Source of the DNA: Candidatus Omnitrophota bacterium
GTDB lineage: Bacteria; Omnitrophota; Gorgyraeia; 2-01-FULL-45-10
Length of the DNA stretch: 64,000 bases
Reading direction: 5' to 3'
NCBI GenBank assembly: GCA_041650935.1
Contig: JBAZKH010000004.1
Location: 5,040 to 69,039 of the forward strand
Position 1 is the stretch's first letter. Every line of letters begins with the position of its first letter. Shown here in pieces: positions 16,948 to 63,634 of the stretch. A program made the position numbers and the translations under genes. The notes under the pieces are model-generated. The model searched no databases. It had not been told where the DNA came from and was given only the letters and a program-made list of their open reading frames with translations.

Positions 16948-16953
16948 CCTATA

Positions 16954-16983
16954 TTCTTGCCGGGTGAATTCACCCGGCAAGAA
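16954..16983. repeat. REP family A copy 1: a perfect palindrome ttcttgccgggtgaattcacccggcaagaa.
   Basis: It lies 7 nt after the ORF1 stop. The same 24-nt core recurs at 33879 and 34585, both flanking a RAYT gene. Confidence 0.7.
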
Positions 16984-17010
16984 AGTGGTAATTGCGTAAA
17001 ATGTAAAAAA

Positions 17011-17087
17011 CACTACTGCGCGCCACCGCGGTAGTGGGTTAACTTTGCTCTTGCAGCCCCGCCAAGCGGTTGCAGAGCAAAGTTAAC
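17011..17087 (+). other. Two further stem-loops in the ORF1-ORF2 intergenic region.
   Basis: The first has cactac...gtagtg arms (17011-17036). The second has a 13-bp stem gttaactttgctc / gagcaaagttaac (17038-17050 / 17075-17087) enclosing an inner ccgc...gcgg hairpin. Confidence 0.5.
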
Positions 17088-17090
17088 CAT

Positions 17091-17112
17091 ATTTCCACCC
17101 CGGGGTGGAAAT
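17091..17112. repeat. REP family B copy 1: palindrome atttccaccccggggtggaaat.
   Basis: It is a perfect 22-nt palindrome. The same core recurs immediately after the ORF2 stop at 26675-26692. Confidence 0.6.
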
Positions 17113-26674: not shown

Positions 26675-26692
26675 TTCCACCCCGGGGTGGAA
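26675..26692. repeat. REP family B copy 2: palindrome ttccaccccggggtggaa.
   Basis: Begins 9 nt after the ORF2 stop. Identical core to 17091-17112. Confidence 0.6.
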
Positions 26693-30163: not shown

Positions 30164-30191
30164 TGCAGGGCACACTTAAGTGTGCCCTGCA
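30164..30191. repeat. Palindrome family C copy 1: tgcagggcacacttaagtgtgccctgca.
   Basis: A perfect 28-nt palindrome between the OMP and SBP genes, preceded by aatagtgta...gtaataat. It is related to 47121-47152. Confidence 0.6.
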
Positions 30192-30208: not shown

Positions 30209-31498
30209 GTGAATAGAAAACTCGCAGCGACAGTTTTTACGGCGCTCTTTTTGTTTTGCTTTTCCGGATGCGCCAAAGAAGGGGGCCTGTCCCAGGGCGC
30301 GGCAAAGCCCGTAGAGATCGAAGTGGCGTTCTGGGGCGCGCCCGACGAGATAAATATCATAACGGGCATGATAGAGCGGTGGCAGGCCAAGCACCCCGAG
30401 ATACTCGTAAAGCTTCAGCATACCCCTTACCGCGGTTATGTGGATAAACTCCTCACAAGAATAGCCGGCCGCGCCGCGCCGGACATCATCTGCACCGAGG
30501 TCGATCTATTCGTTACGTTCCAGACGAAGAATGTCCTGCTCCCCCTCGACGAATATGTAAAGAACGACCCGGAGTTCGACGCCAAAGCCTTTTATCCCGA
30601 GATAATAAAGAGATTCACCGTCGGCGGTAAGTTATACGCCATGCCCAGGGATACCGCTCCGTTTGCCTGCGTATATTATAATAAGAAGTTATTCGACGAG
30701 GCGGGCGTGCCTTATCCTTCGGATGATTGGGATGTAAATGATATGCTCGATAAGGCCAAGCGGCTTACCAAATATGATAAGGACGGCAGGGTCACGCAAT
30801 ACGGGTTCTACGCCTGGGCGTGGCAGAATTTTGTCTACGCCTTCGGCGGGAGCCTGGTCGACGATGTTAAGGCTCCCACAAGGTGCACGCTCGATTCGAA
30901 AGAGGCTGTAGCGGGACTACAGTTCTACGCCGACCTCATAAATAAACACAAGGTCCATCCGTCCTCGATAGCGATGACGAACCTGGCTATGGGCGTTCAG
31001 GCGATGTTCATGACGGGCAGGCTCGCGATGTTCTCGTCGGGCATCTGGGAGACTCCGGGCCTGAGGAAGACGAAAGAGTTCGATTGGGATGTCGCCATGT
31101 TTCCGAAAGGCTCGAAAGGCGTACGCGGCATGGGAACGGGCGGATCCGGTTACTGCATACTTAATACAACGCGGCATCCGAAAGAAGCCTACCAGGTCAT
31201 AAAGGCCCTGACGGGTAAAGACGCCGAGAGCATGCTCGCGGATACGGGACTTGCCCAGCCGGCGCTTGTCGAGATAGCTCAAGGCGTTCACTGGCTCGGC
31301 AGCGACCTGCCGCCCAGGAACAAGCGGATGCTCGACGAGGCGATGAAGTACGTCGTCTATTCCCCATTCCACCCCAAATGGAGGGAACTCCAGGACCTTT
31401 ACATCAATCCCCAATTCGACCTGCTATTCAGCGGAAAACGGACGGCCGCGGAAGCGGTAGCCGGCTTCATCAAGAAAGTAAATGACTCCCTTAAATGA
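30209..31498 (+). CDS. Extracellular solute-binding lipoprotein of a carbohydrate ABC transporter (family 1 SBP).
   Basis: GTG at 30209 with RBS AGAGGG at 30197-30202. The track's ATG at 30155 lies before the palindrome. Lipobox ...LFCFSGC. Typical sugar-SBP sequence features (...GGKLYAMPRDTAP..., ...FSSGIWE...). Confidence 0.8.
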   Translation: MNRKLAATVFTALFLFCFSGCAKEGGLSQGAAKPVEIEVAFWGAPDEINIITGMIERWQAKHPEILVKLQHTPYRGYVDKLLTRIAGRAAPDIICTEVDLFVTFQTKNVLLPLDEYVKNDPEFDAKAFYPEIIKRFTVGGKLYAMPRDTAPFACVYYNKKLFDEAGVPYPSDDWDVNDMLDKAKRLTKYDKDGRVTQYGFYAWAWQNFVYAFGGSLVDDVKAPTRCTLDSKEAVAGLQFYADLINKHKVHPSSIAMTNLAMGVQAMFMTGRLAMFSSGIWETPGLRKTKEFDWDVAMFPKGSKGVRGMGTGGSGYCILNTTRHPKEAYQVIKALTGKDAESMLADTGLAQPALVEIAQGVHWLGSDLPPRNKRMLDEAMKYVVYSPFHPKWRELQDLYINPQFDLLFSGKRTAAEAVAGFIKKVNDSLK

Positions 31499-33867
31499 GT
31501 AAATTCAAGACCAGATACGGCTATTTTACCGATGACGGGAAAGAGTTTGTCATAACCCGTCCCGATACGCCGCGGCCGTGGATAAATATACTCTCGAACG
31601 GCAGTTACGGGGCAATTATGTCGCAGACGGGCTCCGGTTACAGCTGGTGGAGAAATTCCGCCGTTGCCAGGATGACCCGCTGGTTCCAGGACCTTGTGTG
31701 CGACGACATGGGCAGGTATATCTTTATAAAGGACCGCGGCAATAAGAATTTTTGGTCGCTTGCCTGGAAGCCGCTATGCCCGAAATTCGATTTTTACGAG
31801 GTACGTAACGGCATAGGTTACACTACGATTACTTCGAAGCTATACGATATACGGGCTTCCGAGACGGTCTTTATCCCGCCGGACGAGGATCTTGAGATAT
31901 GGCGGATAACGATAAGGAACGAGGGCCCGCGCAAGCGGCGGCTAAGCCTTATAACATACCTCGAGTGGTGCCTCGGCAATTCCGACGATACCCACCGGGA
32001 ATTCCAGAAGACTTTCATAGCGACCCGGTTCGATAAAAATTTAAATGCCATATTTGCGCGGAAGAAGAAACATCTCGTCCCAAAATATATATCGACGGGC
32101 ATGGCCGAATATCCGCTTTCCGGGTTCGCGTCCATAAGCAAAAAGTGCGCTTCTTACGAAGGCGATAAGGAACGGTTCTTCGGCCTGTACAGGTCGATAG
32201 CCAATCCCGTTGCGCTTGAGAATGATAAGCTTTCGAATACCGTCGGAGAATGGTATGATCCGATTTCGAGTCTCCAGGTAAATATCGACCTGAAGCCCGG
32301 CGAAAAGAAGACGATTATCTATACGATCGGCCACATGGCCGATGAGCGGACGGCGAGGGCCATGATCAGGAAGTACCATAGCGTCAAAGCCGCCGATAAG
32401 GCATTTGAAAGGACGAAGAAGTTCTGGGCCGATCTCTTCGCGGGGCTCGAAGTCAAGACTCCCGACGACGCGTTCAATATCCTTACGAATAGATGGCTCA
32501 AATACCAGACGATCGCCGGCAGGCTGTGGGCAAAGACGGCGTATTACCAGTTCTCCGGCGGTACCGGCTTCAGGGACCAGCTGCAGGATTCGCAGGTCTT
32601 CCTTCCCCTGAGGCCTGCGCTATGCAAGAAGCAGATACTGGAGCACGCCGGGCATCAATTTAAAGACGGCACGGTCCACCACTGGTGGCACCAGCTTACG
32701 AAGATAGGCGCGCCTACGGATATGACGGATAACCTTCTCTGGATGGTCTATATACTATTGAGTTATCTCGAGGAGACAAAAGATTTCGGCGCCCTGGACG
32801 AGCGGATAGCGTATCTGGACGGCCCGGCGGGCACTCTCTACGAACATTGCTGTAAGGCCATAGACAGGGTTCTCTCGCGCTTTTCTAAGCGCGGCCTGCC
32901 GCTAATCGGAGCGGGCGACTGGAATGACGGGTTTAACCTCATCGGGGCGGGTTGGAAGGGCGAGAGCACGTGGCTCGGGCAGTTCCTCTACGGCATCCTT
33001 ATTAAATTCGCGGATATCGCCGGGAGACGGAAGGACAGGAAGCGGGCGAGGAGTTACATTGCCCGCGCGCGGCGGCTCAAAGACGCTGTAAACAGGTATT
33101 GCTGGGATGGGGAATGGTACTTTGCCGCGACAAGAGATGACGGAAAAGTCGTAGGCAGCCGCAAGTGTAAAGAAGGTAAAATATATCTTATGACTCAGAC
33201 CTGGGGTGTCTTTAACGACGTCTCGACCGAGGAACGCAAAGTTAAGTCGATGAACTCCGTCTGGAAGCGCCTGCAAAAAGAGTACGGCCCGCTTTTAATA
33301 GCGCCCGGTTTCACGGTCCCTGACGAACATATCGGCTACATTACGCGGTATGCTCCAGGAGTGCGGGAGAACGGCGCTGTCTATACGCACGCGGCGTGCT
33401 GGGCGGTATTGGCGGAGTGCGTGCTCGGCCGCGGCGACAGGGCATACGAAATGTACTCGAGTTTCTGCCCGGTAAAGCGCGGTATGGATCCCGACCTCTA
33501 CAAGTGCGAGCCGTACGTTACCCCCGGTAATACAAACGGCCCGCAGGCCGCCGATTACGGCGCGGGCGGATGGACCTGGTATTCGGGTTCCGGCGGCTGG
33601 CTCTACAGGGTATCGACCAACTGGATCCTTGGCGTGCGGCCGACTTACGAGGGGCTGCTCATCGATCCGTGTATCCCTTCGAAATGGGATGGTTTCACAA
33701 TGAAACGGCGATACGGCAACGCTACATATAATATCGAAGTGAAGAATCCGCGGCATCTTTCGCGAGGCGTCAAGGAAGTTTTTCTAGACGGAAAAATGCA
33801 AAATTCCAACCTGATAAAAGACTTGAGCGATGATAAACCCCACCATATCAAGATCATCCTTGGTTAA
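31495..33867 (+). CDS. GH94 family glycoside phosphorylase, probably a cytoplasmic β-1,2-oligoglucan / cellobiose-type phosphorylase.
   Basis: ATGA overlap with the SBP stop. N-terminus MSKFKTRYGYFTDDGKEFVITRPDTPRPWINILSNGSYG is typical of GH94. GTGFRDQLQD at 32566-32589. Catalytic-acid motif GDWNDG at 32914-32931. No signal peptide. Confidence 0.85.
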   Translation: MSKFKTRYGYFTDDGKEFVITRPDTPRPWINILSNGSYGAIMSQTGSGYSWWRNSAVARMTRWFQDLVCDDMGRYIFIKDRGNKNFWSLAWKPLCPKFDFYEVRNGIGYTTITSKLYDIRASETVFIPPDEDLEIWRITIRNEGPRKRRLSLITYLEWCLGNSDDTHREFQKTFIATRFDKNLNAIFARKKKHLVPKYISTGMAEYPLSGFASISKKCASYEGDKERFFGLYRSIANPVALENDKLSNTVGEWYDPISSLQVNIDLKPGEKKTIIYTIGHMADERTARAMIRKYHSVKAADKAFERTKKFWADLFAGLEVKTPDDAFNILTNRWLKYQTIAGRLWAKTAYYQFSGGTGFRDQLQDSQVFLPLRPALCKKQILEHAGHQFKDGTVHHWWHQLTKIGAPTDMTDNLLWMVYILLSYLEETKDFGALDERIAYLDGPAGTLYEHCCKAIDRVLSRFSKRGLPLIGAGDWNDGFNLIGAGWKGESTWLGQFLYGILIKFADIAGRRKDRKRARSYIARARRLKDAVNRYCWDGEWYFAATRDDGKVVGSRKCKEGKIYLMTQTWGVFNDVSTEERKVKSMNSVWKRLQKEYGPLLIAPGFTVPDEHIGYITRYAPGVRENGAVYTHAACWAVLAECVLGRGDRAYEMYSSFCPVKRGMDPDLYKCEPYVTPGNTNGPQAADYGAGGWTWYSGSGGWLYRVSTNWILGVRPTYEGLLIDPCIPSKWDGFTMKRRYGNATYNIEVKNPRHLSRGVKEVFLDGKMQNSNLIKDLSDDKPHHIKIILG

Positions 33868-33878
33868 TTACCATGTCC

Positions 33879-33910
33879 TTGCCGGGTGAATTCACCCGGC
33901 AAATTTTTTT
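33879..33910. repeat. REP family A copy 2 (ttgccgggtgaattcacccggcaa) plus a T7 run. It acts as the terminator for the GH94 gene and contains the RAYT stop codon.
   Basis: The palindrome is at 33879-33902 and TTTTTTT at 33904-33910. On the minus strand the RAYT reading frame ends ...KKFAG-TGA inside the REP. Confidence 0.7.
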
Positions 33911-34554
33911 GAGATTGCTGTTTGTCTCTGATATTCAATGTTTTCCTTAACAAACTTTTCGTAACTAGTACTATCCAGAGTTAAATATTCACCAAAATTA
34001 CATATTTTTTCATGAGAATCAATAGATCCTATGTATTCTTTGAAGGAAGAATACTTCCAATCTTCAGGGTTTTCAACAAGATATGCTGTGACTGGATTTA
34101 AGTGAAGGTAGCGGGTGAGGTGCAGTAATTGTTCGTCATTTTTTATTAAAACATTACCGAATCGGTTTTCCCATAATGGCCCCTTACGCTCATACTTTAT
34201 ATTGAAGTATCTACTATAGCTATTTAATATATGCCGCATATAATTCGATATTCCATCTTGACGAACTTCTTTTAGAACTAGATGGATGTGCGTGGGCATA
34301 ATACAATAACAAACAAGGTTGGTGCATTGCGGAGAAGGGTTGGATGCTAGAAATTCATCTTTTGCTTTTGCGTCAGCACAGATTTTACGAAATTCACGAA
34401 AAGTACAGGGAGATTTATCGTGTAAATAGAAACGGATCAGATCCAAAATTAATCGATAATCATTTTCGTTATTGAATATTTTAAAATCAGCGATGCTTTT
34501 ATTATATACATGATATAAGCCATCCATAAACAACGGAATCTCTCGTATTGGCAT
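33892..34554 (-). CDS. REP-associated tyrosine transposase (RAYT; IS200/IS605 TnpA-like Y1 HUH enzyme).
   Basis: HUH motif CYCIMPTHIHLVL and the catalytic-Tyr helix ...HLTRYLHLNPV (YxxxNP). AGGAGG RBS 5 nt upstream of the ATG (34554). Flanked by REP-A copies. The gene is markedly AT-rich relative to its neighbours. Confidence 0.8.
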   Translation of the reverse strand: MPIREIPLFMDGLYHVYNKSIADFKIFNNENDYRLILDLIRFYLHDKSPCTFREFRKICADAKAKDEFLASNPSPQCTNLVCYCIMPTHIHLVLKEVRQDGISNYMRHILNSYSRYFNIKYERKGPLWENRFGNVLIKNDEQLLHLTRYLHLNPVTAYLVENPEDWKYSSFKEYIGSIDSHEKICNFGEYLTLDSTSYEKFVKENIEYQRQTAISKKFAG

Positions 34555-34969
34555 AACATCCTCCTGTTTTATTCTTACTTTTACCCTTACTCTTGCCGGG
34601 TGAATTCACCCGGCAAGAGTAAGGTCTCTCATCTATAAGGACGCAAAAAGGGGCAAATTTGTTGCAATTTTTTTTAAATAAGCTTACTTCGAATTTTTCC
34701 CCGACGGGAAATGAATGTTGTGTAACTCTGATAGTGCACAGATATGTTACGCAGTCCAAATTCGTTAAGATTTCAAAAAGATAGACTTTGCTGCTTGACA
34801 AACTTCCCTTATATGCTAAACTAAACACAATGTCGCCCTCCTTCGCTAACTGACTTAAGATAACGGAAAGCTTCGGAGGGTGTTCTAATACAGAAAACAA
34901 TAACGAATGCTTGGCAAAGTTGCCAGGCATTTTTGTTTTATAAGTAAAGTAATTTATTAAGTCAGTCAA
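34502..34969 (-). CDS. Hypothetical small protein upstream of the RAYT on the same strand. Doubtful.
   Basis: A 155-codon ORF, mostly in the AT-rich spacer where random ORFs are rare. It reads through REP-A3 and overlaps the RAYT start by 52 nt. No recognisable motifs. Confidence 0.15.
   Translation of the reverse strand: MTDLINYFTYKTKMPGNFAKHSLLFSVLEHPPKLSVILSQLAKEGDIVFSLAYKGSLSSSKVYLFEILTNLDCVTYLCTIRVTQHSFPVGEKFEVSLFKKNCNKFAPFCVLIDERPYSCRVNSPGKSKGKSKNKTGGCYANTRDSVVYGWLISCI
34585..34624. repeat. REP family A copy 3: a 40-nt perfect palindrome ccttactcttgccgggtgaattcacccggcaagagtaagg.
   Basis: It lies 31 nt upstream of the RAYT start and completes the REP-RAYT-REP arrangement. Confidence 0.75.
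34795..34822 (+). promoter_or_regulatory. σ70-like promoter candidate for ORF3, implying a leader of about 160 nt.
   Basis: -35 TTGACA (34795-34800), a 16-nt spacer, then extended -10 TGcTAAACT (34814-34822). The architecture matches the ORF2 promoter. Confidence 0.35.
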
Positions 34970-34989
34970 ACCTGAGGAGCAGACTAATA

Positions 34990-37900
34990 ATGAAACGAAT
35001 AAATCGAGCGATTTCAGTCTTAATTTTAACCTCCTTTATATTCAATACTGCCGTATCGGACTTTGCTTACGGTGCGCCGATAAATTTAAAACCTTCCGTT
35101 GATAAACTTGCCCCGTCGTCTAAGTTCTGTGATCTGACCGGACGTATAGATAACCAGGATATTGCGAGGGTAGAGATGACCCTCGAGAGCCTGGTCTGGA
35201 AGGCGAGGAAATCCGACGGCACGCTCGATATCGAAAAGCTCATTAAAAACTCCAATGAATCTAGCGACAGCCTTTTCAAATCCCCCGTAAGGTTCGGAGA
35301 GGGGCTCCAGTTCTTCCCGCGCGAAGCAAAAGACTTACCCGGCGGATGCTGGCGTATTACCGCAAAGATAAACGACCGCCAAAATTTCAGCGGCAAAGGC
35401 TTTAGGACATATTATGCGGTACTTCCTGCGCATACCGATGCGCTCGGCGGATTCCCTGTAAGGGGTTATAAAGTAGAAGAGTGGCCGGCGGTAGAGAAAG
35501 AGATATTGGAGCGCGGGAAAACGCCTGACAGGGCGTCCGAAAGGTCCGAAGACGCTAAAGCGATCAACCGTTATAAAGAGAGTAACGAACGGATTATATC
35601 GACTTTTATCCGCGAACGTCTCTATGCGGGTGATTTCGCCGAAATAGAGGGGAGGGCCCATGCGCTCGACTGGGACGCGGAGTATCCGAACAGGATATCG
35701 CCTGATAGCAATCATAATGCCGCATACTGGACTAAAGATATAGAAGATATCTTCCGTAGTAATTCCAGGGAATTTTTTGATCTATTCGGCATAGAGTTCG
35801 ATAAAGTCTTCGGGAAGAAAAATTTCGTATTCATGAAGATCCCCAGGGGGATGGAAAGGCAGCTCGATATTATCGAGAACGGCGAAAGAGTACCGGTAAG
35901 AAGCCGCACGAGCAATAATGCCGTATACTTCTTCCTGAATGAAGATGATTTTAATGAGATCGGCAATTTATCGGCTTCTCATGATGTTGCACAGCTTCGG
36001 GAGCTTGTTATTAGCAGTATGCTGTTAAGTTTTATTCACGAGACAGGCGCCGCCTGCGGCCTGCCATTTTCCGTCCTGGAAGGCGGATTGGTCCAAAGCG
36101 ATCTGGACATAGCCTATAATACTTACTGGAGAATATTTACCGCGGCAACTTTAGAACCTATCGACGTACCGAAGGCTCGCCTCGCCGAAAAATTTTCCAA
36201 CCTTAAAAATCTAAAAGCCGTCGACCTTGATATTCTGCGCGGAGTGAATTTAGCCGGCGAGGAGTACAACCGTGACCTTGCGGCGGCAGTGTTTCCAAAA
36301 ACAGCGCGCGAAGCGACACGCGCACAAGATCTCCCGGGCGATCTGTTCCAGAGTTATGTACGCAGTAATGTGAATAATGTTACCGGGTTGGCTGCGTATG
36401 TGGAAAGCCGCCCGGCGCATGAGAGACCCGCTATTACCCAGAATATCCGCCGCATCCTGAGGGGTTTTCCCGTTGCCCGCAGGGCATTTAACCGCGCCAT
36501 AGCAGATAGCGCTATGAAGAACGCCGATAGCAGGTTAAAAGAGCTCGCCGCGGCCGTCCTGGACGATCGCGATATAAGAGGTTTCGATTTTTCTGTCCGA
36601 TACACCAATACCGGCAGGATTCCCGAGTACTACGAGACATTGCTGATAGATTTTGTAAACCCGCTAAGGCCCGGAGACAGCCAGGAGTTTGTGATTTCGC
36701 TGGTTGCGGGAACCGTAGGCTTGAAGGCCCTGTGGAATGGAGAACCTTACTACTATAGTAGCTTCTCCTCCGGCGGCGTACTGACTACTACCATAACAAA
36801 TGAATTCAAAGCCCGCCTGGCCAAAGTCAAAGAGGAGAATGCGTGGCAGGATTGGGCGCGTATTACGGACGAAGAAGCCGCCGAACAGCCCATTCCGCAA
36901 CCGAAAGGGCCTGTTGCCGGGGAATCCCTCACAAATCAGTCAAAAAGGAAGGTTCAGGAACTTGCTCTGGCGTCCAGGCGCGCTGCAAGGAAGGCCGCTA
37001 GAGAGCTAAAATGGGCCACAGGTTTAGTAGATGACGCAGAACCTCAAGATGCGGAGCCGGCGCTTCTCGCAGAGCCCGCCAAACCCGCGGCAAACCTGGC
37101 AACGATTGACGCTAAACATGCATATTTTTCTGAACTTCACCGGAAAGCCGGGGAGTTAGGCAAGAAAGCTGTGGTCGAGCTTCAGTTCCTTGAGGCCGAC
37201 GGCCGGATAGGCAGAGAGACCGTAACGCTTCCTATTGGTGAAGTCTCCAGGAATATGGATTGCCTGGTAGATTATCTTGCGACATTGCTTAACGTCAGGG
37301 GGCTAATAAACGGCGCAACAAAAGTTGCCGTTCTGACGAAAGAAACCGATGCCGGAGACATTATAGCGCGTTTACGCGAGCACCTGAGGGCGAATTTCGG
37401 AAAGACGGAATTTATGATGTCGTTCGGCCAGGGGATCAGCTTTACCAGGAAACCACTGAAGGCTGAAGCCCGAACCGAAAATAAGGCTAAGACTGTTCCG
37501 GTTGATTATGATAAAGGCGTCGGTGTTGGTTTTGACCTGGGCGGCCAGGGGATAAAATGGGCCCAGAGAACAAAGCCCGGCGAAAAGCCTGCTACCGGTC
37601 GTGTAGATATGGAAGAGCTTATGCGGCCCGGCGCTCTGGCTGGTTTCATCGAGCAAAAGATCAAAGAGACCGAGGAGTCGACGGGCCAGAAAGTAAGTCC
37701 AGGTCACCCCTGTATTATTACCATACCGGGTCCGGTTACACCGGATGGGCGTATAGTACTTATCACTAACCTGGAAAAGACAAGGCCTGGTACCCAGAAG
37801 GAACTTGAAGAGTTGCAGGCAAAGTATCCTCGCGGGACGATCCAGTTCCAGAATGATGCCAATGTGCCCGGCCACTTCTATACTGTATCCCAAAATATAA

Positions 37901-40900
37901 AAGGAAACGTTATCTTCAATACTCTCGGGACAGGCCTGGGGCTTGCGGTCCTCAAAGATCAAAAGTTGGGGCTGGGGCCGATGGAGGCTCATATAAAGAT
38001 GACCTCGGCGCCGGACGCCATTTATCATGATGGTTTTGGCATGAGTGGCGACCTTGAATCCTACGCGAATGCCGAGTTCGTGGTATGGAGAGCGAAGCAG
38101 CTTTGCGCGGAAAGAGGCGTTAGATGGATAGACGGCGCTTCCCCTAAAACCATTGCCAAATGGCTGGACCATCCTGTAGTAGATGCCGAAAAATATCTTA
38201 TTGCCAAAGATGTGTTTATGGAATTCGGAGAGAATCTCACCGTTCTTTATTCTGAAATTGCGCGTGTCCAGGAGGAAAACGAATGGACGGTCGTATGTAT
38301 AGGAGGTATTGCTCAGGGTAAAGCTATAGAAGCGATAATAAAGGGAGTGAACGCAGCGGTTAAGACGAAATATCCGCATTTAAAATTAAATATCAAAACT
38401 TTCCCCGAAGCCGCTTACGCAGGTGCCATAGGCGCTCTCAATCTGGGTATTCAGGCCGCCGCAGAGACAGCGAAAACTACTGTCGAAGCCGCGCGGAATA
38501 CCGGCGGAGACGGCCAGGCGTACGGTGATAGCAATAAGTCTACGGTGGAAGTTATTCGCGCAGCCGAATCTAAGTGGGGCGGAGAGCTCTGGAAAAAAGA
38601 AGAGCTCAAGGCATTTGTAGATGAAAAGTTTGATGCCGTAACGGCGCTTTCCGCCGGCCCGATCTTTGTGCCGAGATCCGTAGTCCCAAATGAGGCGAGG
38701 GTGGGCTTGACACCTATCGGCATCGCATTTTTACGCGCCATAGGTGTTAAAAATCCCATTTATGTCCAAGTGGGTTGCGGTGTTAATCGCGGCACAGGCG
38801 AAGTCTATTTTTCCGACGATGAATACCGTCGGGCAGGGGCCGAGGTGCTTACCTGGGATGCTTTTGTGGCGAAAGCGCAAAGCGTTGACCGGAAGACTGT
38901 AGTCAATACAAAAGATCCGCAAGAATCCGAATTCCCGATCCTCAAAGGAGCGACTTTATTTGCGTATTTACACCTGGCGGCGCATCCGGAGCTTGCCCGA
39001 AGGCTATGCGATGTCATTGAAACAGGTATTGGTTACGAAACGATCGCTTTCTATGACAACGGAGTTTTACGCACTCCCGTTCTTCGCCCGGCAAGCCGTC
39101 CGACAGGCTGGTTATCCGCGCTTCGTTATTTAGAAACGGTGCGTGCGAAAAAAGAAGGACTGGATTTAAAGTCACCCGCGGTGCAAGTTCAGATGGGGCG
39201 TTGGTATAATGAAGACGCCGGGCAGTATCCTATGATGCCGCGACATACTACAGGAGCCCTTTCCGGCAAGACGGTAGTTGTTTTAGGCGGAGGGGAAGTA
39301 GGCTCAAGCGCCGCATTTGCGGCCGCCGACATGGGAGCCGCTGTTTATGTCACCGAAATCAATAGCAATCGTATTACCGAACTTGAGCAGATGATAGCCG
39401 AACGGCGCATAAGAGGCGCCGCGGGTTCCGTAGAAGTGGTCGCGAGAGACCAGAGAACGCCTATCGGCCAGGACGGGATCGGCAAGCATTTGTGGGAAGC
39501 CGACGCCATAATCGGCGCCTGTTATGTCGAAGGTTCCAGGCCTCCCGTTGAGATCGACTATACGCTTTACCGGGCACTTGTTGAACATGGCAACCTTGAG
39601 TATATGGCGGATCCCCCGATTGACCAGGGAGGAAGTATCGCGATAAGGCCCGGCCCGGAAGCTTCTGTTGAGCATACTGTTGAGCATACTTATGAGGATG
39701 GCTGGATAATAGAAGACGGTGTCTCGATCTTTACCGTGAGGAATATACCGAGCCTTCTGTCGCTTCAAGTTTCTCTCGGCCTTGAGCGGGCCAAGATGCC
39801 GTATCTTGTAGCGTCTCTCATGGGGCTCGAAAAAGCGATCGCTGCTTTCCCCGAGTTTGCCAGGGGCGTTAATGTTTATAAGGGGGCAGTAACCCAAGAG
39901 AATGTTGCCAGAGACATCGGCAAAGAGTATCTTCCGCTGGATACCGCTCTTTCCGGCGCAGGGTTGGGCGCGAGGCCGACAGCCGAGTATGTACTGCCGG
40001 CAGGTATTAAGGTAAATGATGTGAATGGCGCGATAAATGTAAAAGTATTCGAGCGCGAGGCATCCTTTAGTGTTTCGGATAATGCCGCAGTGATCGAGCA
40101 AAAATTAAGGGATATTTTAACGCCTTACAACATGCGGATCGGGGAAGGATGTTTAATTAACACTTATTTAAAACGTAAAGTGCTGCTCCCGAAGTTTGTG
40201 CGCAGTGCCGAAGGACTTCGCGCCGTTATCGCGGAACTGTTCGGCAGGATAAGCATTACGCTGCCCGGCCGAAAAGACAGGATCGAGATAACGAATTCTG
40301 CCAGTGTGGTTACCGCTCAACTTAACATAAGTGAAGCATTCAGGGGTAGCGGTATAGATGCATATGCAATAGGCGGCGATATGGTTACGTTGACACGCCC
40401 CGGCGTGAGCAGGATTAACGTCCCCGTACCGTTAGAACCGGCCAAACTCCAGGAAGCCTTCGAAACGCTATATGGAGAAACTCCGGCTAGTGACGTGCCT
40501 GTAGCAGGGACGACGCTTTCACTGAAAGATATTGTCAGGCATGATGTATTGAACGCGCTCTTAAACATGGCCATCAACTATTCCCGTGGAAGAAATGATA
40601 ACTTTATAAAGCATGAATATGATGGCGATGCTGAAATCTACTGGATTAAAGGAGGCGATTTCCGCGGTCTGCTGCAGTATTTGCTTGATTGCAAGCGTGA
40701 AGACCTGAAAATGGCAAAACGGTCTGTCGAAAACGATACCGAGTTATTCACTCTACTCATGCGCAATATCTTGAGCAGGTCTTATATATCCAACGAGATA
40801 CGCGTGATGTATGATTTAAGCTCATTTGCAGAACAGGTCGACAGCATGTTTTTGCTGGACTACCAACTGTCGGGGCAATTTGAACACTTCGGAGTCGGCT

Positions 40901-43900
40901 CCGGTGTTTCCACCGGCCCCATAAGGATCTTTATGTCTTCAGGCATGAGAGAGCATAAAGATGAGATCATTGCTCACGTCAAGGCCGAACGGGCACTCCA
41001 CTGGGCGGTCATCAATAAGTATTTTAAAGGCAACCTCAATAACTATCGGGAATGGAGAAAAAGCAGGATATCTATTAAGATCAATGTCGAGATAGAAGCC
41101 GAAAATTATACGGAGAAAAAAGGTGCCGTTACCTTATTACAAATCGATTCAGGAAGTAAACAGTTAACTTATAACGAATTTGCGGAAGAGGCCCATAAAA
41201 CGGCCGATGTTATTGCGAATGTTTCCCGTTTCAAAGAAATCTACAAGCGGCAGGGGGGAAGAAATACATCTCTTCTGCATGGGGAAGTTTCGGTTGCCGG
41301 CACCGCCTCCGGGCAGGATGGAGGCAAGCCGGATGAAAGGAAGAAAGATCTCGCTGGCATGGTTAGAAGCCTGACCAAGGCTGGCAAGAGCCCGGAAGAC
41401 GCGATCATAATTATCGCGATGGAAGGCCTGCGTAAATTTACTATAGATAAGTATAAAAGTGTTTATGAGTTACAAAGATCGCGAGGGGTATTAAAGCTCG
41501 ATCCCCTTGCCGGCAGCGATTCTACCGTGAGGGATAACATCTACCGTGGTTCCAATTCGCTCGAGAGCCGGCATTTAATCGCGCCTATCTATGGCGAGGT
41601 TAATGTAAAGGGCAGGTCTGTGCGCGCATGGCAACTGACAAGGCGCGGCGCGGAGATGGCAGAAGCGATAAGGATAATAAGGATCACCATGCAGGATATT
41701 ATGACAACGAGCGAGTCTATGCGTGGTGAGATCGAGGATGGCGAAGCGAAATCTGTCGCTAAAGCACTAGAAAGCGAATGCAGACAGGTTTTCGATCTCA
41801 AAGGTCCGGAATTTTTTGCAGAAATGGGGAGTCCGATAAATTTTGCAAATGCGCTTTACACAGCGCATTTGTCGAGACTTATAACCGTTTTAAGCGGCCT
41901 GAGCGCCAGGGAACATTCGGATTATTTTGGGAAACTGTCCAATAAACTGCGTGGTTATCGTGATGCGCTTCGGACGGGCGCGGACAAATTTGCGGCATCC
42001 CTTAAAGGAGAATTTTCCGGGGGCTCGCGCATCGATTTACCCAAAGCTGCCGACGCCGGCGCGATAGGCGGCGCTTCCAATATGGGTGTCCAGGCGGCTG
42101 TGCGTGCAGGGACGGAAAGCGCAAGCGAGCCGCAGCCGGCTAGTGACGCGCCTGTGGCGGAAGACGACAAAATGTCGTCTATTTCGCGTCTTACGAAAAT
42201 TTTAGACAGGGCACGGGAGGAAGGGATAAGGAATGCCCTGTTTGTCTTCGATATCGGCGGGACCCTTACAGGATGGAACGATGTTAAAGTCAATGAAATG
42301 GGAGGATATCCCGAAGTAAACAAGAGCCTGGAATCTTTATTGAAGAATGGGTACTATTCCGGCGTGCCGGATTTTGCGCAGGTTGTTTCACTTCTGGCAA
42401 GATATGGACACAAGGTGGGATTTATAACTACCGCAACGCTGGAGGAGACTGTAGGGATATTGCATGAGACCATGAGGGTGGAAGATTTGAATAGTGTGGC
42501 GTTAATAGTCGCGAAAAAATCGAACTCGCAATATATTCCTTCCCTTGCGGGCAGGTTTGGTATCCCGGCCGGTTTAGCAACAAGCGGTGAGCTCATCAAT
42601 CATTTACAAACGGCATATCCCGGCATGGTGGTTGAGTTAAGCGCCCTTCCAAAGCCGGAGATCGTAACGTCTGTGCCAAGAGTTGAAGATCTGCTTGATA
42701 AATATCCCGTCATTGCCATAGGTGATAGAGAAGAGGATTGTTCTTGGACGCAGGCCCTAAGCATGGCCGCAGGCGTTCGGGTCCCGTCCATCGGTAAAGA
42801 CGCTATAAATAATGTTGCCAAGACGGCCGCCGCGGGAATAGAGCTTTTATTGGAAAAGGACCAGCCTGCCGCGCCGGCGAGTAGTACCGGAGAAACAGCG
42901 GAAGTAGGGGGCCTTGGCCGTTTTATCGATAGTTCCGATCTGGGAGAGCACTACCGCGCTGTTATGGATGAAAATCCCGGGCCGACGGATCGTATCAGCA
43001 TTATAGTGAGCGGCAGGATAAGCCAATTAGATGGAAGCAGTGATCCCGTTTCCTATAATATAATCATCGGTAACGGGTGTATTGAGATTTGGGAACGTGA
43101 CGCATGGGACGTAAGATGGTATCCGGTTAAAGCGGAGATGACAGGGGCAAGACAGCTTACCTTGAGAGGTTCTGGTAAATCCGAAGTTGTCAAATTACCT
43201 GCGAGAATATTTGATCTTGTGGCGGCTATTAATAATGTCCTGGGACATAGATTTGTAAGCGTCCCATCGGTGAAGTTATCCAAAATAGCCGAGGAATCAG
43301 AAATAGAAGACCATGGCAGCCGGCCGGCGCCGCAAAATTCGTCGAAGGCAGCGGCCCTTGCGAAGACGTGCGCGGAAATTAAAGCTATGAGCGAAATAGC
43401 GCCGCAGATAGGCGACATAGCCGAACTTGCCGGAAAACAGATGGACAGGGAAAAGGACGGGAAGTATACCCTAGCTGTGCCGCCGGAAATGTTCAAGAAT
43501 AAGTGGGAGTTCAATAAACGCCGCAGGGAGTATGGCGACAGGTTCAACCTGGTCGAGACGAGTGCGCTTACGGCATCGGCGGAGACGTTTGTTAATAATC
43601 TGTTGAATCCCAAAACCATTCCGGAAGATCAAAGAAGCAAAACGATTGCGCTTGTACCGAAGAGTTTATCCAGAGATGACCTGGCAAGGCTCAAGGATGC
43701 CAAGATAAGATTTATCCCGGTCAGCGACCAACTGGCAAGCGTGAAAAGCTATCCTGAAGACGACAGGAAAATATTCCAGGTAAATACTTTTGCCGCCATG
43801 CATTCTTTGCGTCACGTAAACGATTCGCACGATACCGCATCCGTAGTTTATAGGATATCGGCTTTCTACGCATTACGCCATATTACTTCAAAAGACGGCG

Positions 43901-44043
43901 TTAAGATCAGTATAGAGGATTTCATCAAGGCAGTCGTCGATGGAAATGTCGACATATTGATCGATGTCTGTTTCGAGCCGGTCCGTCCGAAAGACGCGGA
44001 GAAAGAGCATGATATGGTTTCGAAACCTCTGATATTTGCGTAA
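34990..44043 (+). CDS. Giant secreted or anchored multidomain protein (3,017 aa). It has a ROK/glucokinase-like ATPase, an alanine-dehydrogenase/transhydrogenase-like NAD module and a degenerate HAD-like module.
   Basis: ATG at 34990 with RBS GAGGAG at 34974-34979. Signal peptide MKRINRAISVLILTSFIFNTAVSDFAYGAP. Single ORF to TAA at 44041-44043. Confidence 0.85.
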   Translation: MKRINRAISVLILTSFIFNTAVSDFAYGAPINLKPSVDKLAPSSKFCDLTGRIDNQDIARVEMTLESLVWKARKSDGTLDIEKLIKNSNESSDSLFKSPVRFGEGLQFFPREAKDLPGGCWRITAKINDRQNFSGKGFRTYYAVLPAHTDALGGFPVRGYKVEEWPAVEKEILERGKTPDRASERSEDAKAINRYKESNERIISTFIRERLYAGDFAEIEGRAHALDWDAEYPNRISPDSNHNAAYWTKDIEDIFRSNSREFFDLFGIEFDKVFGKKNFVFMKIPRGMERQLDIIENGERVPVRSRTSNNAVYFFLNEDDFNEIGNLSASHDVAQLRELVISSMLLSFIHETGAACGLPFSVLEGGLVQSDLDIAYNTYWRIFTAATLEPIDVPKARLAEKFSNLKNLKAVDLDILRGVNLAGEEYNRDLAAAVFPKTAREATRAQDLPGDLFQSYVRSNVNNVTGLAAYVESRPAHERPAITQNIRRILRGFPVARRAFNRAIADSAMKNADSRLKELAAAVLDDRDIRGFDFSVRYTNTGRIPEYYETLLIDFVNPLRPGDSQEFVISLVAGTVGLKALWNGEPYYYSSFSSGGVLTTTITNEFKARLAKVKEENAWQDWARITDEEAAEQPIPQPKGPVAGESLTNQSKRKVQELALASRRAARKAARELKWATGLVDDAEPQDAEPALLAEPAKPAANLATIDAKHAYFSELHRKAGELGKKAVVELQFLEADGRIGRETVTLPIGEVSRNMDCLVDYLATLLNVRGLINGATKVAVLTKETDAGDIIARLREHLRANFGKTEFMMSFGQGISFTRKPLKAEARTENKAKTVPVDYDKGVGVGFDLGGQGIKWAQRTKPGEKPATGRVDMEELMRPGALAGFIEQKIKETEESTGQKVSPGHPCIITIPGPVTPDGRIVLITNLEKTRPGTQKELEELQAKYPRGTIQFQNDANVPGHFYTVSQNIKGNVIFNTLGTGLGLAVLKDQKLGLGPMEAHIKMTSAPDAIYHDGFGMSGDLESYANAEFVVWRAKQLCAERGVRWIDGASPKTIAKWLDHPVVDAEKYLIAKDVFMEFGENLTVLYSEIARVQEENEWTVVCIGGIAQGKAIEAIIKGVNAAVKTKYPHLKLNIKTFPEAAYAGAIGALNLGIQAAAETAKTTVEAARNTGGDGQAYGDSNKSTVEVIRAAESKWGGELWKKEELKAFVDEKFDAVTALSAGPIFVPRSVVPNEARVGLTPIGIAFLRAIGVKNPIYVQVGCGVNRGTGEVYFSDDEYRRAGAEVLTWDAFVAKAQSVDRKTVVNTKDPQESEFPILKGATLFAYLHLAAHPELARRLCDVIETGIGYETIAFYDNGVLRTPVLRPASRPTGWLSALRYLETVRAKKEGLDLKSPAVQVQMGRWYNEDAGQYPMMPRHTTGALSGKTVVVLGGGEVGSSAAFAAADMGAAVYVTEINSNRITELEQMIAERRIRGAAGSVEVVARDQRTPIGQDGIGKHLWEADAIIGACYVEGSRPPVEIDYTLYRALVEHGNLEYMADPPIDQGGSIAIRPGPEASVEHTVEHTYEDGWIIEDGVSIFTVRNIPSLLSLQVSLGLERAKMPYLVASLMGLEKAIAAFPEFARGVNVYKGAVTQENVARDIGKEYLPLDTALSGAGLGARPTAEYVLPAGIKVNDVNGAINVKVFEREASFSVSDNAAVIEQKLRDILTPYNMRIGEGCLINTYLKRKVLLPKFVRSAEGLRAVIAELFGRISITLPGRKDRIEITNSASVVTAQLNISEAFRGSGIDAYAIGGDMVTLTRPGVSRINVPVPLEPAKLQEAFETLYGETPASDVPVAGTTLSLKDIVRHDVLNALLNMAINYSRGRNDNFIKHEYDGDAEIYWIKGGDFRGLLQYLLDCKREDLKMAKRSVENDTELFTLLMRNILSRSYISNEIRVMYDLSSFAEQVDSMFLLDYQLSGQFEHFGVGSGVSTGPIRIFMSSGMREHKDEIIAHVKAERALHWAVINKYFKGNLNNYREWRKSRISIKINVEIEAENYTEKKGAVTLLQIDSGSKQLTYNEFAEEAHKTADVIANVSRFKEIYKRQGGRNTSLLHGEVSVAGTASGQDGGKPDERKKDLAGMVRSLTKAGKSPEDAIIIIAMEGLRKFTIDKYKSVYELQRSRGVLKLDPLAGSDSTVRDNIYRGSNSLESRHLIAPIYGEVNVKGRSVRAWQLTRRGAEMAEAIRIIRITMQDIMTTSESMRGEIEDGEAKSVAKALESECRQVFDLKGPEFFAEMGSPINFANALYTAHLSRLITVLSGLSAREHSDYFGKLSNKLRGYRDALRTGADKFAASLKGEFSGGSRIDLPKAADAGAIGGASNMGVQAAVRAGTESASEPQPASDAPVAEDDKMSSISRLTKILDRAREEGIRNALFVFDIGGTLTGWNDVKVNEMGGYPEVNKSLESLLKNGYYSGVPDFAQVVSLLARYGHKVGFITTATLEETVGILHETMRVEDLNSVALIVAKKSNSQYIPSLAGRFGIPAGLATSGELINHLQTAYPGMVVELSALPKPEIVTSVPRVEDLLDKYPVIAIGDREEDCSWTQALSMAAGVRVPSIGKDAINNVAKTAAAGIELLLEKDQPAAPASSTGETAEVGGLGRFIDSSDLGEHYRAVMDENPGPTDRISIIVSGRISQLDGSSDPVSYNIIIGNGCIEIWERDAWDVRWYPVKAEMTGARQLTLRGSGKSEVVKLPARIFDLVAAINNVLGHRFVSVPSVKLSKIAEESEIEDHGSRPAPQNSSKAAALAKTCAEIKAMSEIAPQIGDIAELAGKQMDREKDGKYTLAVPPEMFKNKWEFNKRRREYGDRFNLVETSALTASAETFVNNLLNPKTIPEDQRSKTIALVPKSLSRDDLARLKDAKIRFIPVSDQLASVKSYPEDDRKIFQVNTFAAMHSLRHVNDSHDTASVVYRISAFYALRHITSKDGVKISIEDFIKAVVDGNVDILIDVCFEPVRPKDAEKEHDMVSKPLIFA
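37510..38450 (+). other. ROK / glucokinase-like ASKHA sugar-kinase domain.
   Basis: VGFDLGGQGIKWA (the phosphate-1 DxGGT-type loop, from 37525), FQNDANVPG (the ROK NDAN motif), NTLGTGLGLAV (the phosphate-2 GTGxG loop) and ...CIGGIAQG... Confidence 0.55.
38680..39800 (+). other. Alanine dehydrogenase / pyridine-nucleotide transhydrogenase-like N-terminal and NAD(H)-binding domains.
   Basis: ...RVGLTPIGIAFLRAIG... followed by KTVVVLGGGEVGSSAAFAAADMGAAVYVTEINSNRITELE (a GxGxxG Rossmann fingerprint at 39275-39316). Confidence 0.5.
42200..42830 (+). other. HAD-like module with a degenerate motif I.
   Basis: LFVFDIGGTLTGW (42247-42267) is DxGGTL rather than DxDGTL. Downstream ...VIAIGDREEDCSWTQ... 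resembles a GDxxxD motif IV. It may be non-catalytic. Confidence 0.3.
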
Positions 44044-44056
44044 CCTTTGCTTTCTC

Positions 44057-44077
44057 CCCGGCAAGAAGCTTGCCGGG
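44057..44077. repeat. REP-A-related hairpin cccggcaag-aag-cttgccggg, with the REP-A arms in swapped order.
   Basis: A 9-bp stem with a 3-nt loop, 14 nt after the ORF3 stop. The arms are identical to those of REP-A but arranged as at a REP-REP junction. Confidence 0.5.
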
Positions 44078-44088
44078 ATAAGCCTGTA

Positions 44089-44097
44089 TGGTATAAT
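44089..44097 (+). promoter_or_regulatory. Extended -10 TGgTATAAT, giving a leaderless transcript for the response-regulator gene.
   Basis: TATAAT at 44092-44097 with TG at 44089-44090. The ATG at 44104 is 7 nt downstream, so the TSS falls at or near the A of the ATG. No RBS is possible. Confidence 0.4.
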
Positions 44098-44103
44098 ATC
44101 CCT

Positions 44104-44787
44104 ATGCGAATACTCGTTATCGAAGACGAGCGGAAGATAGCCGATTTCATCAGGCGCGGCTTAAAAGAAGAAGGCTATGCCGTCGATACTTCTTACGACG
44201 GCGAGAACGGCCTATTTCTCGCCAAGACCAATAACTATGACCTCATCCTTCTCGATCTTATGCTCCCTAAAATAGACGGTATTACGGTCTGCAAAAAGCT
44301 GAGAGCGGATAAGATCGTATCGCCTATCATAATGCTTACCGCCAAAGACGCCGTAAAGGATAAGGTCACAGGCCTCGACGCCGGCGCCGACGATTATCTG
44401 ACAAAACCATTTGCCTTCGAGGAGCTATTGGCCAGGATCCGCGCAATATTAAGGAAGAAGGGCGAACAGGAACAGGCGACGCGTCTTGCGGTCGGCGATC
44501 TTTCACTCGACCTCACGACGCATAAAGTTACCAGGGCGGGGAAAGATATAGAGCTGACTTCAAAAGAATTTGCGCTGCTGGAATACCTTATGAGAAACGC
44601 CGGCAAGGTTGTGACCAGGACGATGATATCCGAGCACGTCTGGGATATAGATTTCGACACGTTCACCAACGTCATAGACGTCTACATCAATTATCTCCGT
44701 AATAAAATAGACTCCGACGCCAGAGTGAAGCTCATCCAGACCGTGAGGGGAAGAGGATATATACTGAAAAGTGATAATGACAAATGA
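44104..44787 (+). CDS. OmpR-family response regulator (receiver plus winged-helix DNA-binding domain).
   Basis: MRILVIEDERKIADFIRRGL...DLILLDLMLPKIDG...LTAKDAVKDKVTGLDAGADDYLTKPF... followed by a trans_reg_C-like C-terminus ...LEYLMRNAGKVVTRTMISEHVW... Confidence 0.85.
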   Translation: MRILVIEDERKIADFIRRGLKEEGYAVDTSYDGENGLFLAKTNNYDLILLDLMLPKIDGITVCKKLRADKIVSPIIMLTAKDAVKDKVTGLDAGADDYLTKPFAFEELLARIRAILRKKGEQEQATRLAVGDLSLDLTTHKVTRAGKDIELTSKEFALLEYLMRNAGKVVTRTMISEHVWDIDFDTFTNVIDVYINYLRNKIDSDARVKLIQTVRGRGYILKSDNDK

Positions 44788-44811
44788 CAAAATCCGAATG
44801 ACAAATTAATC
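44772..44811 (+). promoter_or_regulatory. Conserved direct-repeat element, copy 1: gtgataatgacaaatgacaaaatccgaatgacaaattaatc. It spans the response-regulator stop codon.
   Basis: 35 of 41 positions are identical to 63513-63552. Three TGACAAA half-sites at about 14-nt spacing. An inverted copy tttgtcattg lies at 44825-44834. The element sits between the response-regulator and kinase genes. Confidence 0.4.
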
Positions 44812-44860
44812 ATTAAATATCAAATTTGTCATTGAACACCGTATTCTTGGGCAAAAATAT

Positions 44861-47091: not shown

Positions 47092-47120
47092 AAATAGTGA
47101 ATAGTGTATAGTAAATAAAT

Positions 47121-47152
47121 ATTGTAGGGCAGGCTTAAGCCTGCCCTACAAT
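47121..47152. repeat. Palindrome family C copy 2: attgtagggcaggcttaagcctgccctacaat.
   Basis: A perfect 32-nt palindrome, preceded by aatagtgaatagtgtatagtaaataaat. It shares the gggcaNNcttaagNNtgccc core and upstream flank with 30164-30191. Confidence 0.6.
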
Positions 47153-47198
47153 AATGTGCAGAAAGATAGCTACGTACTACCTCTGTAAAAGGATAGCA

Positions 47199-63511: not shown

Positions 63512-63512
63512 A

Positions 63513-63552: not shown

Positions 63553-63634
63553 GTCAATGACAAATATTTGGATTTAAACGATTGATTTGGATTTTGAAAT
63601 TGGGATTTGAAAATTGTGATTGGAGGGTTGCGCG

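Follow-up and report, generated by a model that had tools for sequence, protein, structure and literature searches.

A probable REPtron-like transposase module at the left end of a lineage-specific insertion in an Omnitrophota genome

The window examined here is the whole 64-kb stretch of DNA analysed from a Candidatus Omnitrophota bacterium (contig JBAZKH010000004.1), and coordinates refer to that stretch unless a locus label (L### or P###) is given. An earlier note on this DNA drew attention to a gene for a tyrosine transposase of the kind that accompanies repetitive extragenic palindromes (REPs), abbreviated RAYT, located between a GH94 gene and a giant open reading frame (ORF3) and accompanied by palindromic repeats. 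This gene and the repeats, termed REP-A, are arranged as follows.

33892..34554, minus strand: RAYT-type HUH/Y1 tyrosine transposase gene, 220 amino acids (Pfam and NCBIfam matches, motifs, AlphaFold2 model and fold match)
33866..33910, no strand assigned: REP-A copy 2, overlapping the GH94 stop codon and containing the RAYT stop codon, with its core hairpin at 33878-33902
34581..34626, no strand assigned: REP-A copy 3, whose 40-nt perfect palindrome (34585-34624) is flanked on each side by an outer tag (ACC/GGT)
16944..16993, no strand assigned: REP-A copy 1, solo, 17 kb from RAYT and directly after the ORF1 stop codon, with the layout TAACC-N6-core-N6-GGTAATT (double-foot)
44041..44077, no strand assigned: right-boundary hairpin, with TAACC overlapping the ORF3 stop codon, N11, and CCCGGCAAG-AAG-CTTGCCGGG (hairpin 44057-44077)

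The assignment of the gene to the Y1 HUH transposases, first suggested by the RAYT hallmarks HIHLVL and YLHLNPV, is borne out by its 220-residue product. The only Pfam family matched is Y1_Tnp (27.4 bits, above the cut-off of 23), with no helix-turn-helix (HTH) domain found, and the best Protein Data Bank (PDB) match by sequence is E. coli TnpA_REP (4er8). An AlphaFold2 model of the protein (mean predicted local distance difference test score 87.3) yields as its top Foldseek PDB match 4er8_A, which is TnpA_REP bound to REP (E 3.2e-7, target-normalised template-modelling score 0.72), followed by the IS200/IS605 transposases (IS608 and ISDra2 TnpA). The HUH motif is H89-I-H91, in PTHIHLVL, and the catalytic tyrosine is Y149, in YLHLNP. 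A search among 5.8e9 proteins returned 1823 related database proteins at E-values up to 1e-3, including a 100% identical 'transposase' on a 178-kb contig of a Candidatus Omnitrophota metagenome-assembled genome, and an alignment of 27 sequences from this RAYT clade contains 39 invariant positions, including H89, H91, Y149-x-H-L-N-P, PLW and an SS pair. The class-2 signature Y---NP is present, with Y149, H151, L152, N153 and P154 invariant in the clade. The protein also carries the WE and SS motifs, and every catalytic and clade-invariant residue is intact. All 27 clade members match the NCBIfam family REP_Tyr_transpos (NF047646), with a best E-value of 3.6e-21.

The gene has a ribosome-binding site (AGGAGG) 6 nt before its ATG, and no clear sigma-70 promoter was found for it either between the gene and REP-A copy 3 or upstream of that copy. 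Every sizeable gene in the window except RAYT lies on the plus strand and the cumulative GC skew climbs monotonically, so that among the genes only the transcription of RAYT opposes the inferred direction of replication.

The REP-A 24-mer, TTGCCGGGTGAATTCACCCGGCAA, is present in exact form at 16957, 33879 and 34593, where 100 shuffles give an expectation of 0. The two perfect copies that had been claimed to flank RAYT are thus real, the segment 34585-34624 being perfectly palindromic, and so are the copies claimed away from the gene, as the 16957 copy is exact and a permuted relative occurs at 44057. Comparison of the three copies in both orientations gives a full unit of approximately 50 nt, composed of T[AT]ACC, 5-6 nt, a 26-nt GC-rich hairpin, 5-6 nt and GGT[AT]A. 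The hairpin feet are flanked by ATGTC, TTACT and ATATT; a GT[AG]G foot is absent, and T[AT]ACC recurs 5-6 nt out. The outer tag is present on either side of copies 1 and 3, whereas copy 2 has it only on the GH94 side, with the RAYT frame entering the hairpin on the other.

Of 13 positions in the right flank of copy 1, 10 agree with the left flank of copy 2 read as its reverse complement, and the repeat alignment that includes copy 1 spans 37 nt (92%). The window contains eight occurrences of the 9-mer that forms the REP-A outer arm, where 0.69 would be expected; all but one fall within REP-A or the 44057-44077 hairpin, which contains both 9-nt outer arms in swapped order. Three contig collections, none of which holds the source genome, were also scanned. 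The metagenome_contigs scan with a REP-A 20-mer gave 47 singletons, nearly all in a conserved coding motif of unrelated bacteria and none with the 24-mer, and 0 matches were obtained both in genome_contigs (22-mer) and in viral_contigs.

In copy 2, there is an overlap between the outer arm AATTACC and the GH94 stop codon, after which come the spacer ATGTC and the core hairpin. The REP-A copy at 33879-33902 encloses the RAYT stop codon (TGA, 33892-33894, minus strand), as the earlier note had it, and the last five RAYT codons plus the stop fall within the copy 2 hairpin and its T-run. The convergent GH94 and RAYT stop codons are just 24 nt apart. A run of seven T residues after copy 2 on the plus strand creates a terminator-like site for GH94, and this copy probably serves as the GH94 terminator; copies 1 and 3 have no T-runs. 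The palindrome of copy 3 is located 31-70 nt upstream of the RAYT start codon, has a DNA fold of -22.4 kcal/mol (z -10), and probably insulates or throttles RAYT expression.

Continuity across the 40-nt palindrome is provided by the 178-kb assembly only. Two independent Logan contigs (SRR8542065) break inside it, as expected of a k=31 graph, and each supports one junction, GH94-REP-RAYT in one case and ORF3 to the downstream response regulator (RR) gene in the other. Misassembly at the palindrome was rejected because these junctions are confirmed and the breaks fit such a graph.

More than 579 loci among GTDB species representatives encode a RAYT relative, the majority of them in Omnitrophota. 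Labels of the other hosts include Elusimicrobia/Endomicrobia, Planctomycetia, Scalindua, Nitrospirota, WOR-3 and two lineages of the candidate phyla radiation. No relative was found in IMG/VR viral contigs, and carriage of the clade by phages was rejected on this basis. For 73 loci with complete flanks, we determined the longest exact word common to the 300-nt upstream and downstream flanks (threshold at least 14 nt), using as a control the upstream flank of one locus and the downstream flank of another. A shared word was present at 54 of the 73 loci (74%) compared with 2 of 73 (3%) for the mismatched control, and nearly always it was a GC-rich hairpin. One hairpin is found 30-75 nt before the start codon, and the other 0-25 nt after the stop codon or overlapping it.

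The sequence of the hairpin varies from genome to genome, and closely related RAYTs carry near-identical hairpins with compensatory changes (L099/L117, with 88% protein identity, and L082/L090). AACC is found 5' of the clade hairpins in 63 of 160 cases against 12 expected (5.2-fold), with a sharp peak 15-17 nt from the apex. Because the RAYT stop codon TAA forms part of TAACC at many of the relatives' loci, the location of the window's stop codon inside a REP is a tighter version of the normal clade arrangement. Cognate hairpins are also dispersed away from the gene. In the 54 flank-sharing loci (700 kb), 23 copies were counted more than 600 nt from the gene, at 14 loci, which corresponds to 3.3 per 100 kb compared with 0.056 per 100 kb when the hairpin of another locus is used as the control (approximately 59-fold). 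The window has one solo REP-A copy (16957) in 63 kb, a rate of the same order as that of its relatives, and REP density in the clade is far below that of E. coli or Pseudomonas. Three genomes contain two RAYT copies, with paralogs that are 49-60% identical and that each have their own hairpin. The RAYT module is not an oddity; it is unexceptional within its RAYT clade, which is large, unnamed and centred on Omnitrophota.

These observations bear on the possibility that the palindromes are ordinary terminators or regulatory hairpins around a decaying transposase gene, with no relationship between enzyme and repeat. Copy 2 does constitute a textbook hairpin and T-run after GH94, and every copy is positioned just after a stop codon or in a 5' region. 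However, three exact 24-nt copies with conserved outer arms would not be expected, two of the three lack T-runs, and the two-sided, genome-specific hairpins in 74% of relatives against 3% of controls point to a link with the gene. Intact catalytic and clade-invariant residues likewise argue against decay, and we regard this explanation as highly improbable.

Another possibility is that the locus is an autonomous insertion sequence (IS) of the IS200/IS605 type, whose left and right ends would be the hairpins, whose protein would move its own gene, and for which the 16957 copy would be a solo end or a miniature inverted-repeat transposable element. The geometry of a transposase between two subterminal hairpins is the same, the fold also matches IS608 and ISDra2 TnpA, the gene, like most mobile elements, has a higher AT content than its hosts, and the locus is a lineage-specific insertion (see below). 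In contrast, the catalytic motif is Y...NP and not the Y...Q of subclass 1.1 IS200 transposases (PMC6006769), no tnpB was found with RAYT, and solo hairpins are dispersed without the gene. Only one RAYT copy is present in the window, and no near-identical copy was found anywhere among the 5.8e9 proteins, where the closest non-self match is 54% identical, though related genomes are present in that database as judged by GH94. An autonomous IS therefore seems unlikely: solo hairpins, diverged paralogs, the lack of near-identical copies and Y...NP in place of Y...Q favour a REP-RAYT system over a multicopy IS.

We consider it likely that the locus is a REPtron-like module, comprising a TnpA_REP-like RAYT with cognate REP-A on both sides, and that it is a member of the large unnamed clade centred on Omnitrophota. 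REPtrons, in which TnpA_REP/RAYT genes have flanking REPs, have been described in E. coli (yafM), Pseudomonas and Stenotrophomonas (Nunvar 2010, PMC2817692; Messing 2012, PMC3479197; Corneloup 2021, PMC8266576). Several points weigh against this interpretation. The RAYT score of 65.7 bits against NF047646 is under the equivalog cut-off of 80 bits, REP-A does not have the GT[AG]G tag by which canonical REPs are defined, and the 64 kb shows just three REP-A copies and one derivative, two of them flanking RAYT. The motifs of RAYT resemble those of subclass 2.1, which was reported to be REP-less (PMC6006769). Moreover, the C-terminal five residues depart from the clade consensus, and judging from this divergence the activity of the window's copy is not assured. 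RAYT and ORF3 also need not have arrived in one event.

If the locus is indeed a REPtron-like module, its action might resemble that of TnpA_REP from E. coli, Stenotrophomonas and Marinomonas, for which the described steps are binding of single-stranded DNA hairpins, guidance by the tag, cutting near the hairpin foot and strand transfer (PMC8266576, PMC3479197). By this analogy, RAYT would bind the folded REP-A hairpin when the DNA is single-stranded and would read the flanking tag as a guide. It could then cut beside the hairpin through Y149 with an HUH-bound metal and rejoin the strands, and such activity might disperse solo hairpins at low density, as with the 16957 copy.

The surroundings of the module were examined by comparison with related genomes, and the relevant features are the following.

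33868..44103 (boundaries +/- 3 nt), plus strand: lineage-specific 10.2-kb insertion (synteny in six relatives, junction alignment and GH94 identity matrix)
31495..33867, plus strand: GH94 cellobiose-phosphorylase-like gene, conserved left flank
34795..34942, plus strand: promoter-like site and structured leader, upstream of the ORF3 ribosome-binding site
34990..44043, plus strand: giant ORF3, 3017 amino acids, with ROK and AlaDH/PNT domains, insertion cargo
44104..44787, plus strand: OmpR-type RR gene, conserved right flank, with its ATG at 44104

The RAYT module lies at the left end of a 10.2-kb insertion that also includes the orphan ORF3 and, at its right end, a REP-A-derived hairpin. The contents in order are REP-A, RAYT, REP-A, the spacer, ORF3 and the permuted REP-A hairpin of the right boundary. 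The module had been described as wedged between a GH94 operon and a resident ORF3, but RAYT and ORF3 together form an insert between GH94 and the RR gene. This was established with contigs of six relatives whose GH94 genes are 82, 79, 78, 77, 77 and 74% identical to that of the window, and in all of which 33868-44103 is missing from the GH94/RR site. The gene order in six of six relatives is HAMP, glycoamylase, (hypothetical), SBP, GH94, RR, histidine kinase (HK), CBM11, glycoamylase, TPR and giant GH94, and the window keeps this order except for the interposed block. The gap between GH94 and the RR gene in these relatives is 1-144 nt, and in four of them it is 1-9 nt with no scar.

Nucleotide homology with the relatives extends through the GH94 stop codon and resumes at the RR start codon (44104). 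The identity matrix for GH94 is star-like, and the block is lacking as well from P0129 (74%), a more distant relative. Because the block is missing from all six relatives, including this distant one, its gain in the window's lineage is the parsimonious reading. The insertion splits an otherwise conserved GH94-RR-HK sugar-utilisation operon.

The orthologous GH94/RR spacer contains other elements in two genomes: in L130 (12374-12517), three REPs that have GGTAA tags and form another family (TCAACCGCGTAGGTTGA type), and in L132 (12374-12469), a palindromic element of the form CATTGCGAGG...CCTCGCAATG. This spacer is therefore a recurrent target for palindromic elements.

The observed distribution would also result if the block were ancestral and had been lost from the relatives by deletion, for instance through REP-REP recombination. 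REPs are known recombination substrates, and L130 retains three of them at the site. However, absence in six of six relatives, P0129 among them, is not readily explained by deletion, nor are the scarless gaps of just 1-9 nt in four genomes. ORF3 has no ortholog among the 5.8e9 proteins, and the L130 REPs are of another family. Deletion is thus quite improbable, and we retain the view that the block was gained.

Base composition had been taken in the earlier note, which described the gene and the 365-nt spacer up to ORF3 as an AT-rich island, as a sign of a recently acquired or mobile RAYT. The RAYT coding sequence is 34.1% GC compared with 50.8% in the rest of the window, its GC content at third codon positions (GC3) is 0.30 compared with 0.59, and the 1-kb segment 34001-35000 is the GC minimum of the 64 kb. 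The gene is therefore as AT-rich as claimed, but the spacer is not exceptional, since its 36.4% GC falls among the 27-39% of other promoter-bearing intergenic spacers in the window. It follows that the compositional anomaly is confined to the RAYT coding sequence.

This anomaly recurs throughout the clade. RAYT is AT-richer than its flanks at 77 of 80 loci (mean -8.6 points), its GC3 is under that of neighbouring genes at 68 of 73 (mean -11.7 points), and its GC at first and second codon positions is lower at all 73. A regression of RAYT GC3 on host GC3 has a slope of just 0.38 (r 0.64), and the RAYT deficit therefore grows with host GC; the window represents a GC-rich host. Selfish or weakly selected genes commonly show persistently low GC of this kind. 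Low RAYT GC is a clade-wide property and provides no timestamp for the arrival of this copy, and consequently composition does not date the acquisition of RAYT.

The tetranucleotide signature of ORF3 (mean r 0.856) is inside the range of other window segments (0.843-0.878), and its GC3 is 0.52 compared with 0.30 for RAYT. Given this host-like signature, the insert as a whole is no fresh foreign island, and RAYT and ORF3 may have arrived separately. A recent foreign island deduced from GC was accordingly ruled out by the clade-wide shift, the ordinary intergenic spacer and the host-like ORF3. What remains of the proposed recent acquisition is its lineage-specific part, as GH94 lies directly by the RR gene in the six relatives; the recency drawn from AT-richness does not survive, with 77 of 80 loci showing the same shift.

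The synteny and composition data also bear on whether the entire block 33868-44103 is a single RAYT-mobilised, REP-delimited cargo transposon that travelled in single-stranded form and whose two ends, each a tag plus a hairpin, share one strand. In agreement with such an element, T[AT]ACC and a REP-A-type hairpin are present at both block ends on the plus strand, which is the lagging-strand template according to gene orientation and GC skew, and the block is missing from the six relatives with clean junctions. However, there is a single known instance, the right hairpin is a permuted REP-A and no true copy, and copy 3 of REP-A sits internally, separating RAYT from ORF3. The difference between RAYT (GC3 0.30) and ORF3 (GC3 0.52, host-like signature) fits separate arrivals, and the REPs of L130 and the palindrome of L132 in the same spacer suggest that the site may be a mere hot spot for insertion or recombination. 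We find a cargo transposon of this kind doubtful. It is similarly doubtful that a cargo element carried the 9-kb orphan gene into the operon and that the clade is still mobile with large cargo, rather than represented by a domesticated single-copy gene. A REPtron-like module at the edge of the insertion continues to be our preferred interpretation.

ORF3 has one match besides itself among the 5.8e9 proteins (41% identity over 10% of the query). Its origin as a duplicate of ORF1 or ORF2 through REP-mediated intragenomic duplication was rejected because it has no similarity to either. A promoter-like site at 34795-34822 (TTGACA-16-TAAACT with TG), 170 nt beyond the REP, has hexamers identical to those before ORF2. 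It is followed by a predicted structured RNA of approximately 115 nt (minimum free energy -39.6 kcal/mol, z -4.65). This RNA finishes with an intrinsic terminator, 45 nt ahead of the ORF3 ribosome-binding site. The segment 34795-34942 is a candidate attenuator leader or small RNA, and no Rfam match was found in the spacer or leader at gathering or permissive thresholds. The expression of ORF3 had been suggested to be rewired by the insertion; ORF3 is itself part of the insert, and therefore was not rewired by it. In the relatives, the RR and HK genes are close to GH94 translationally, while in the window they are 10 kb away, with TGGTATAAT at 44088-44096 before them. We infer that the genes whose context changed are these downstream RR and HK genes and not ORF3.

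No tRNA genes were found in the 64-kb window. A 155-amino-acid minus-strand ORF at 34502-34969 and a 41-amino-acid ORF in the spacer have no family matches; both were treated as spurious, and the former crosses the palindrome and overlaps the RAYT start. The spacer also contains a small hairpin at 34698-34716, TTTCCCCGACGGGAAA, whose CCCGTCGGG-type core is like the hairpins flanking RAYT homologs in L056 and L100, and which may be a degraded REP.

A second hairpin family is present in the window.

17091..17112, no strand assigned: REP-B (TTCCACCCCGGGGTGGAA), with TAACC before it at 17083

A further REP-B copy is located at 26675-26692 and a variant at 15401-15418; the two exact copies follow the stop codons of giant genes, and the variant is inside ORF1. 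The identical 18-nt REP-B core is found on both sides of a RAYT homolog in L123 (9216-9233 and 9919-9936), another Omnitrophota genome, and a second RAYT elsewhere in the source genome is therefore predicted from this sequence match. Adjoining REP-B, and 50 nt from REP-A copy 1, is a long near-perfect hairpin at 17037-17090 (GGTTAACTTTGCTCT...AGAGCAAAGTTAACC). The ORF1/ORF2 spacer thus holds a cluster of three different palindromic elements, resembling a bacterial interspersed mosaic element.

Canonical GTAG...CTAC double-foot palindromes, such as TATTGTAGGGCAGGCTTAAGCCTGCCCTACAATA, occur at 47120-47153 and 30164-30191 in the window, at 15246-15273 and 5161-5186 in L129, and at 5845-5870 in L132. 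The GTAG palindrome between the CBM11 and glycoamylase genes has an orthologous position in L129, with compensatory stem changes. On this comparison, a vertically kept GTAG-type REP or terminator appears to coexist with the TAACC-tagged families.

Two other repeats were noted. Giant ORF1 contains GC-rich GGGGCAGGCCCCAAACCACTCGGCCCTTCGGGCCTCGGATTC units with a 42-nt period, in frame (14 codons), at 9703-9759 and 11863-12072; three are in tandem, a fourth is offset by 69 nt, and a separate copy lies 2.1 kb upstream. A 69-nt repeat at 44748-44816 and 63489-63557 (75% identical, with three ATGACAAA direct repeats) is located at the end of the RR gene and after a ROK gene, respectively, with a Logan contig ending inside the second copy. 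These copies may be RR binding sites.

RAYTs are the textbook case of a domesticated transposase, and to our knowledge they have been studied almost only in Proteobacteria and Cyanobacteria. No literature linking Omnitrophota with RAYT, IS200 or REP was found in the searched library, nor any linking the clade's other phyla with REP or RAYT. With this locus a clade comes into view that comprises several hundred or more species-level genomes from Omnitrophota, Elusimicrobia, Planctomycetota and other poorly known phyla. Three of its features are worth following, namely the T[AT]ACC tag instead of GTAG; genes that are AT-rich whatever the host composition, a trait of selfish elements; and, in the one case described here, the physical association of RAYT with the acquisition of an orphan giant gene of 9 kb by which a conserved operon is interrupted. 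If this link is causal, RAYT/REP systems would shape gene content beyond scattering hairpins; if it is not, the locus would be a well-documented but ordinary REPtron.

The relationship of the module to known systems can be stated in terms of likeness and difference. With IS200/IS605 elements (IS608 and ISDra2) it shares the catalytic fold, the hairpin-gene-hairpin order, a guide-like tag 5' of each hairpin, and the lack of target-site duplications or inverted terminal repeats. It differs from them in having Y...NP and not Y...Q, no multicopy identical elements seen, no tnpB, and hairpins whose dispersal does not depend on the gene. REP-A copies 1 and 3 are similar to the double-foot REPs of subclass 2.4 (Quentin et al. 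2018, PMC6006769) in that they have the tag and its reverse complement around a symmetric hairpin, such that both strands present the same substrate. However, the tag is T[AT]ACC and not GT[AG]G, the subclass motifs WQ and YIxNNP are not in the window protein, and there is no REP inside the gene.

By the published motif table, the clade appears nearest to TnpA_Y1 subclass 2.1 (PMC6006769), which equals group 1 of Bertels and the TIRYT of Di Nocera 2013. Common to both are Y[IV]HLNP (clade consensus YIHLNP, window YLHLNP), WE, SS in the proximal tail, the length class (220 residues in the window against a median of 238), and a wide, patchy taxonomic spread. Subclass 2.1 was reported without REP-like sequences, and with a C-terminal HTH-like domain or GGGGWSAS terminal inverted repeats (PMC6006769). 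The window differs in having REP hairpins, no such terminal repeats, no Pfam HTH, and T rather than N before the HuH.

In comparison with REPtrons, the window protein is longer (220 residues), with a conserved extra C-terminal region of approximately 50 residues, and is under the NCBIfam equivalog threshold; its gene is strongly AT-shifted relative to the host. REP density in the window and clade is much lower, at roughly 1-3 per 100 kb near the gene, and a T[AT]ACC/GGT[AT]A tag 5-6 nt from the hairpin foot takes the place of GT[AG]G. In other respects the module corresponds to these systems, as it has the HUH/Y1 fold with 4er8 as its best match, the Y...NP motif, and a gene between cognate GC-rich hairpins. 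The solo intergenic hairpins just after stop codons and the RAYT-specific REPs are likewise features that the module has in common with REPtrons, and no near-identical gene copy was found in the 64-kb window or among the 5.8e9 proteins.

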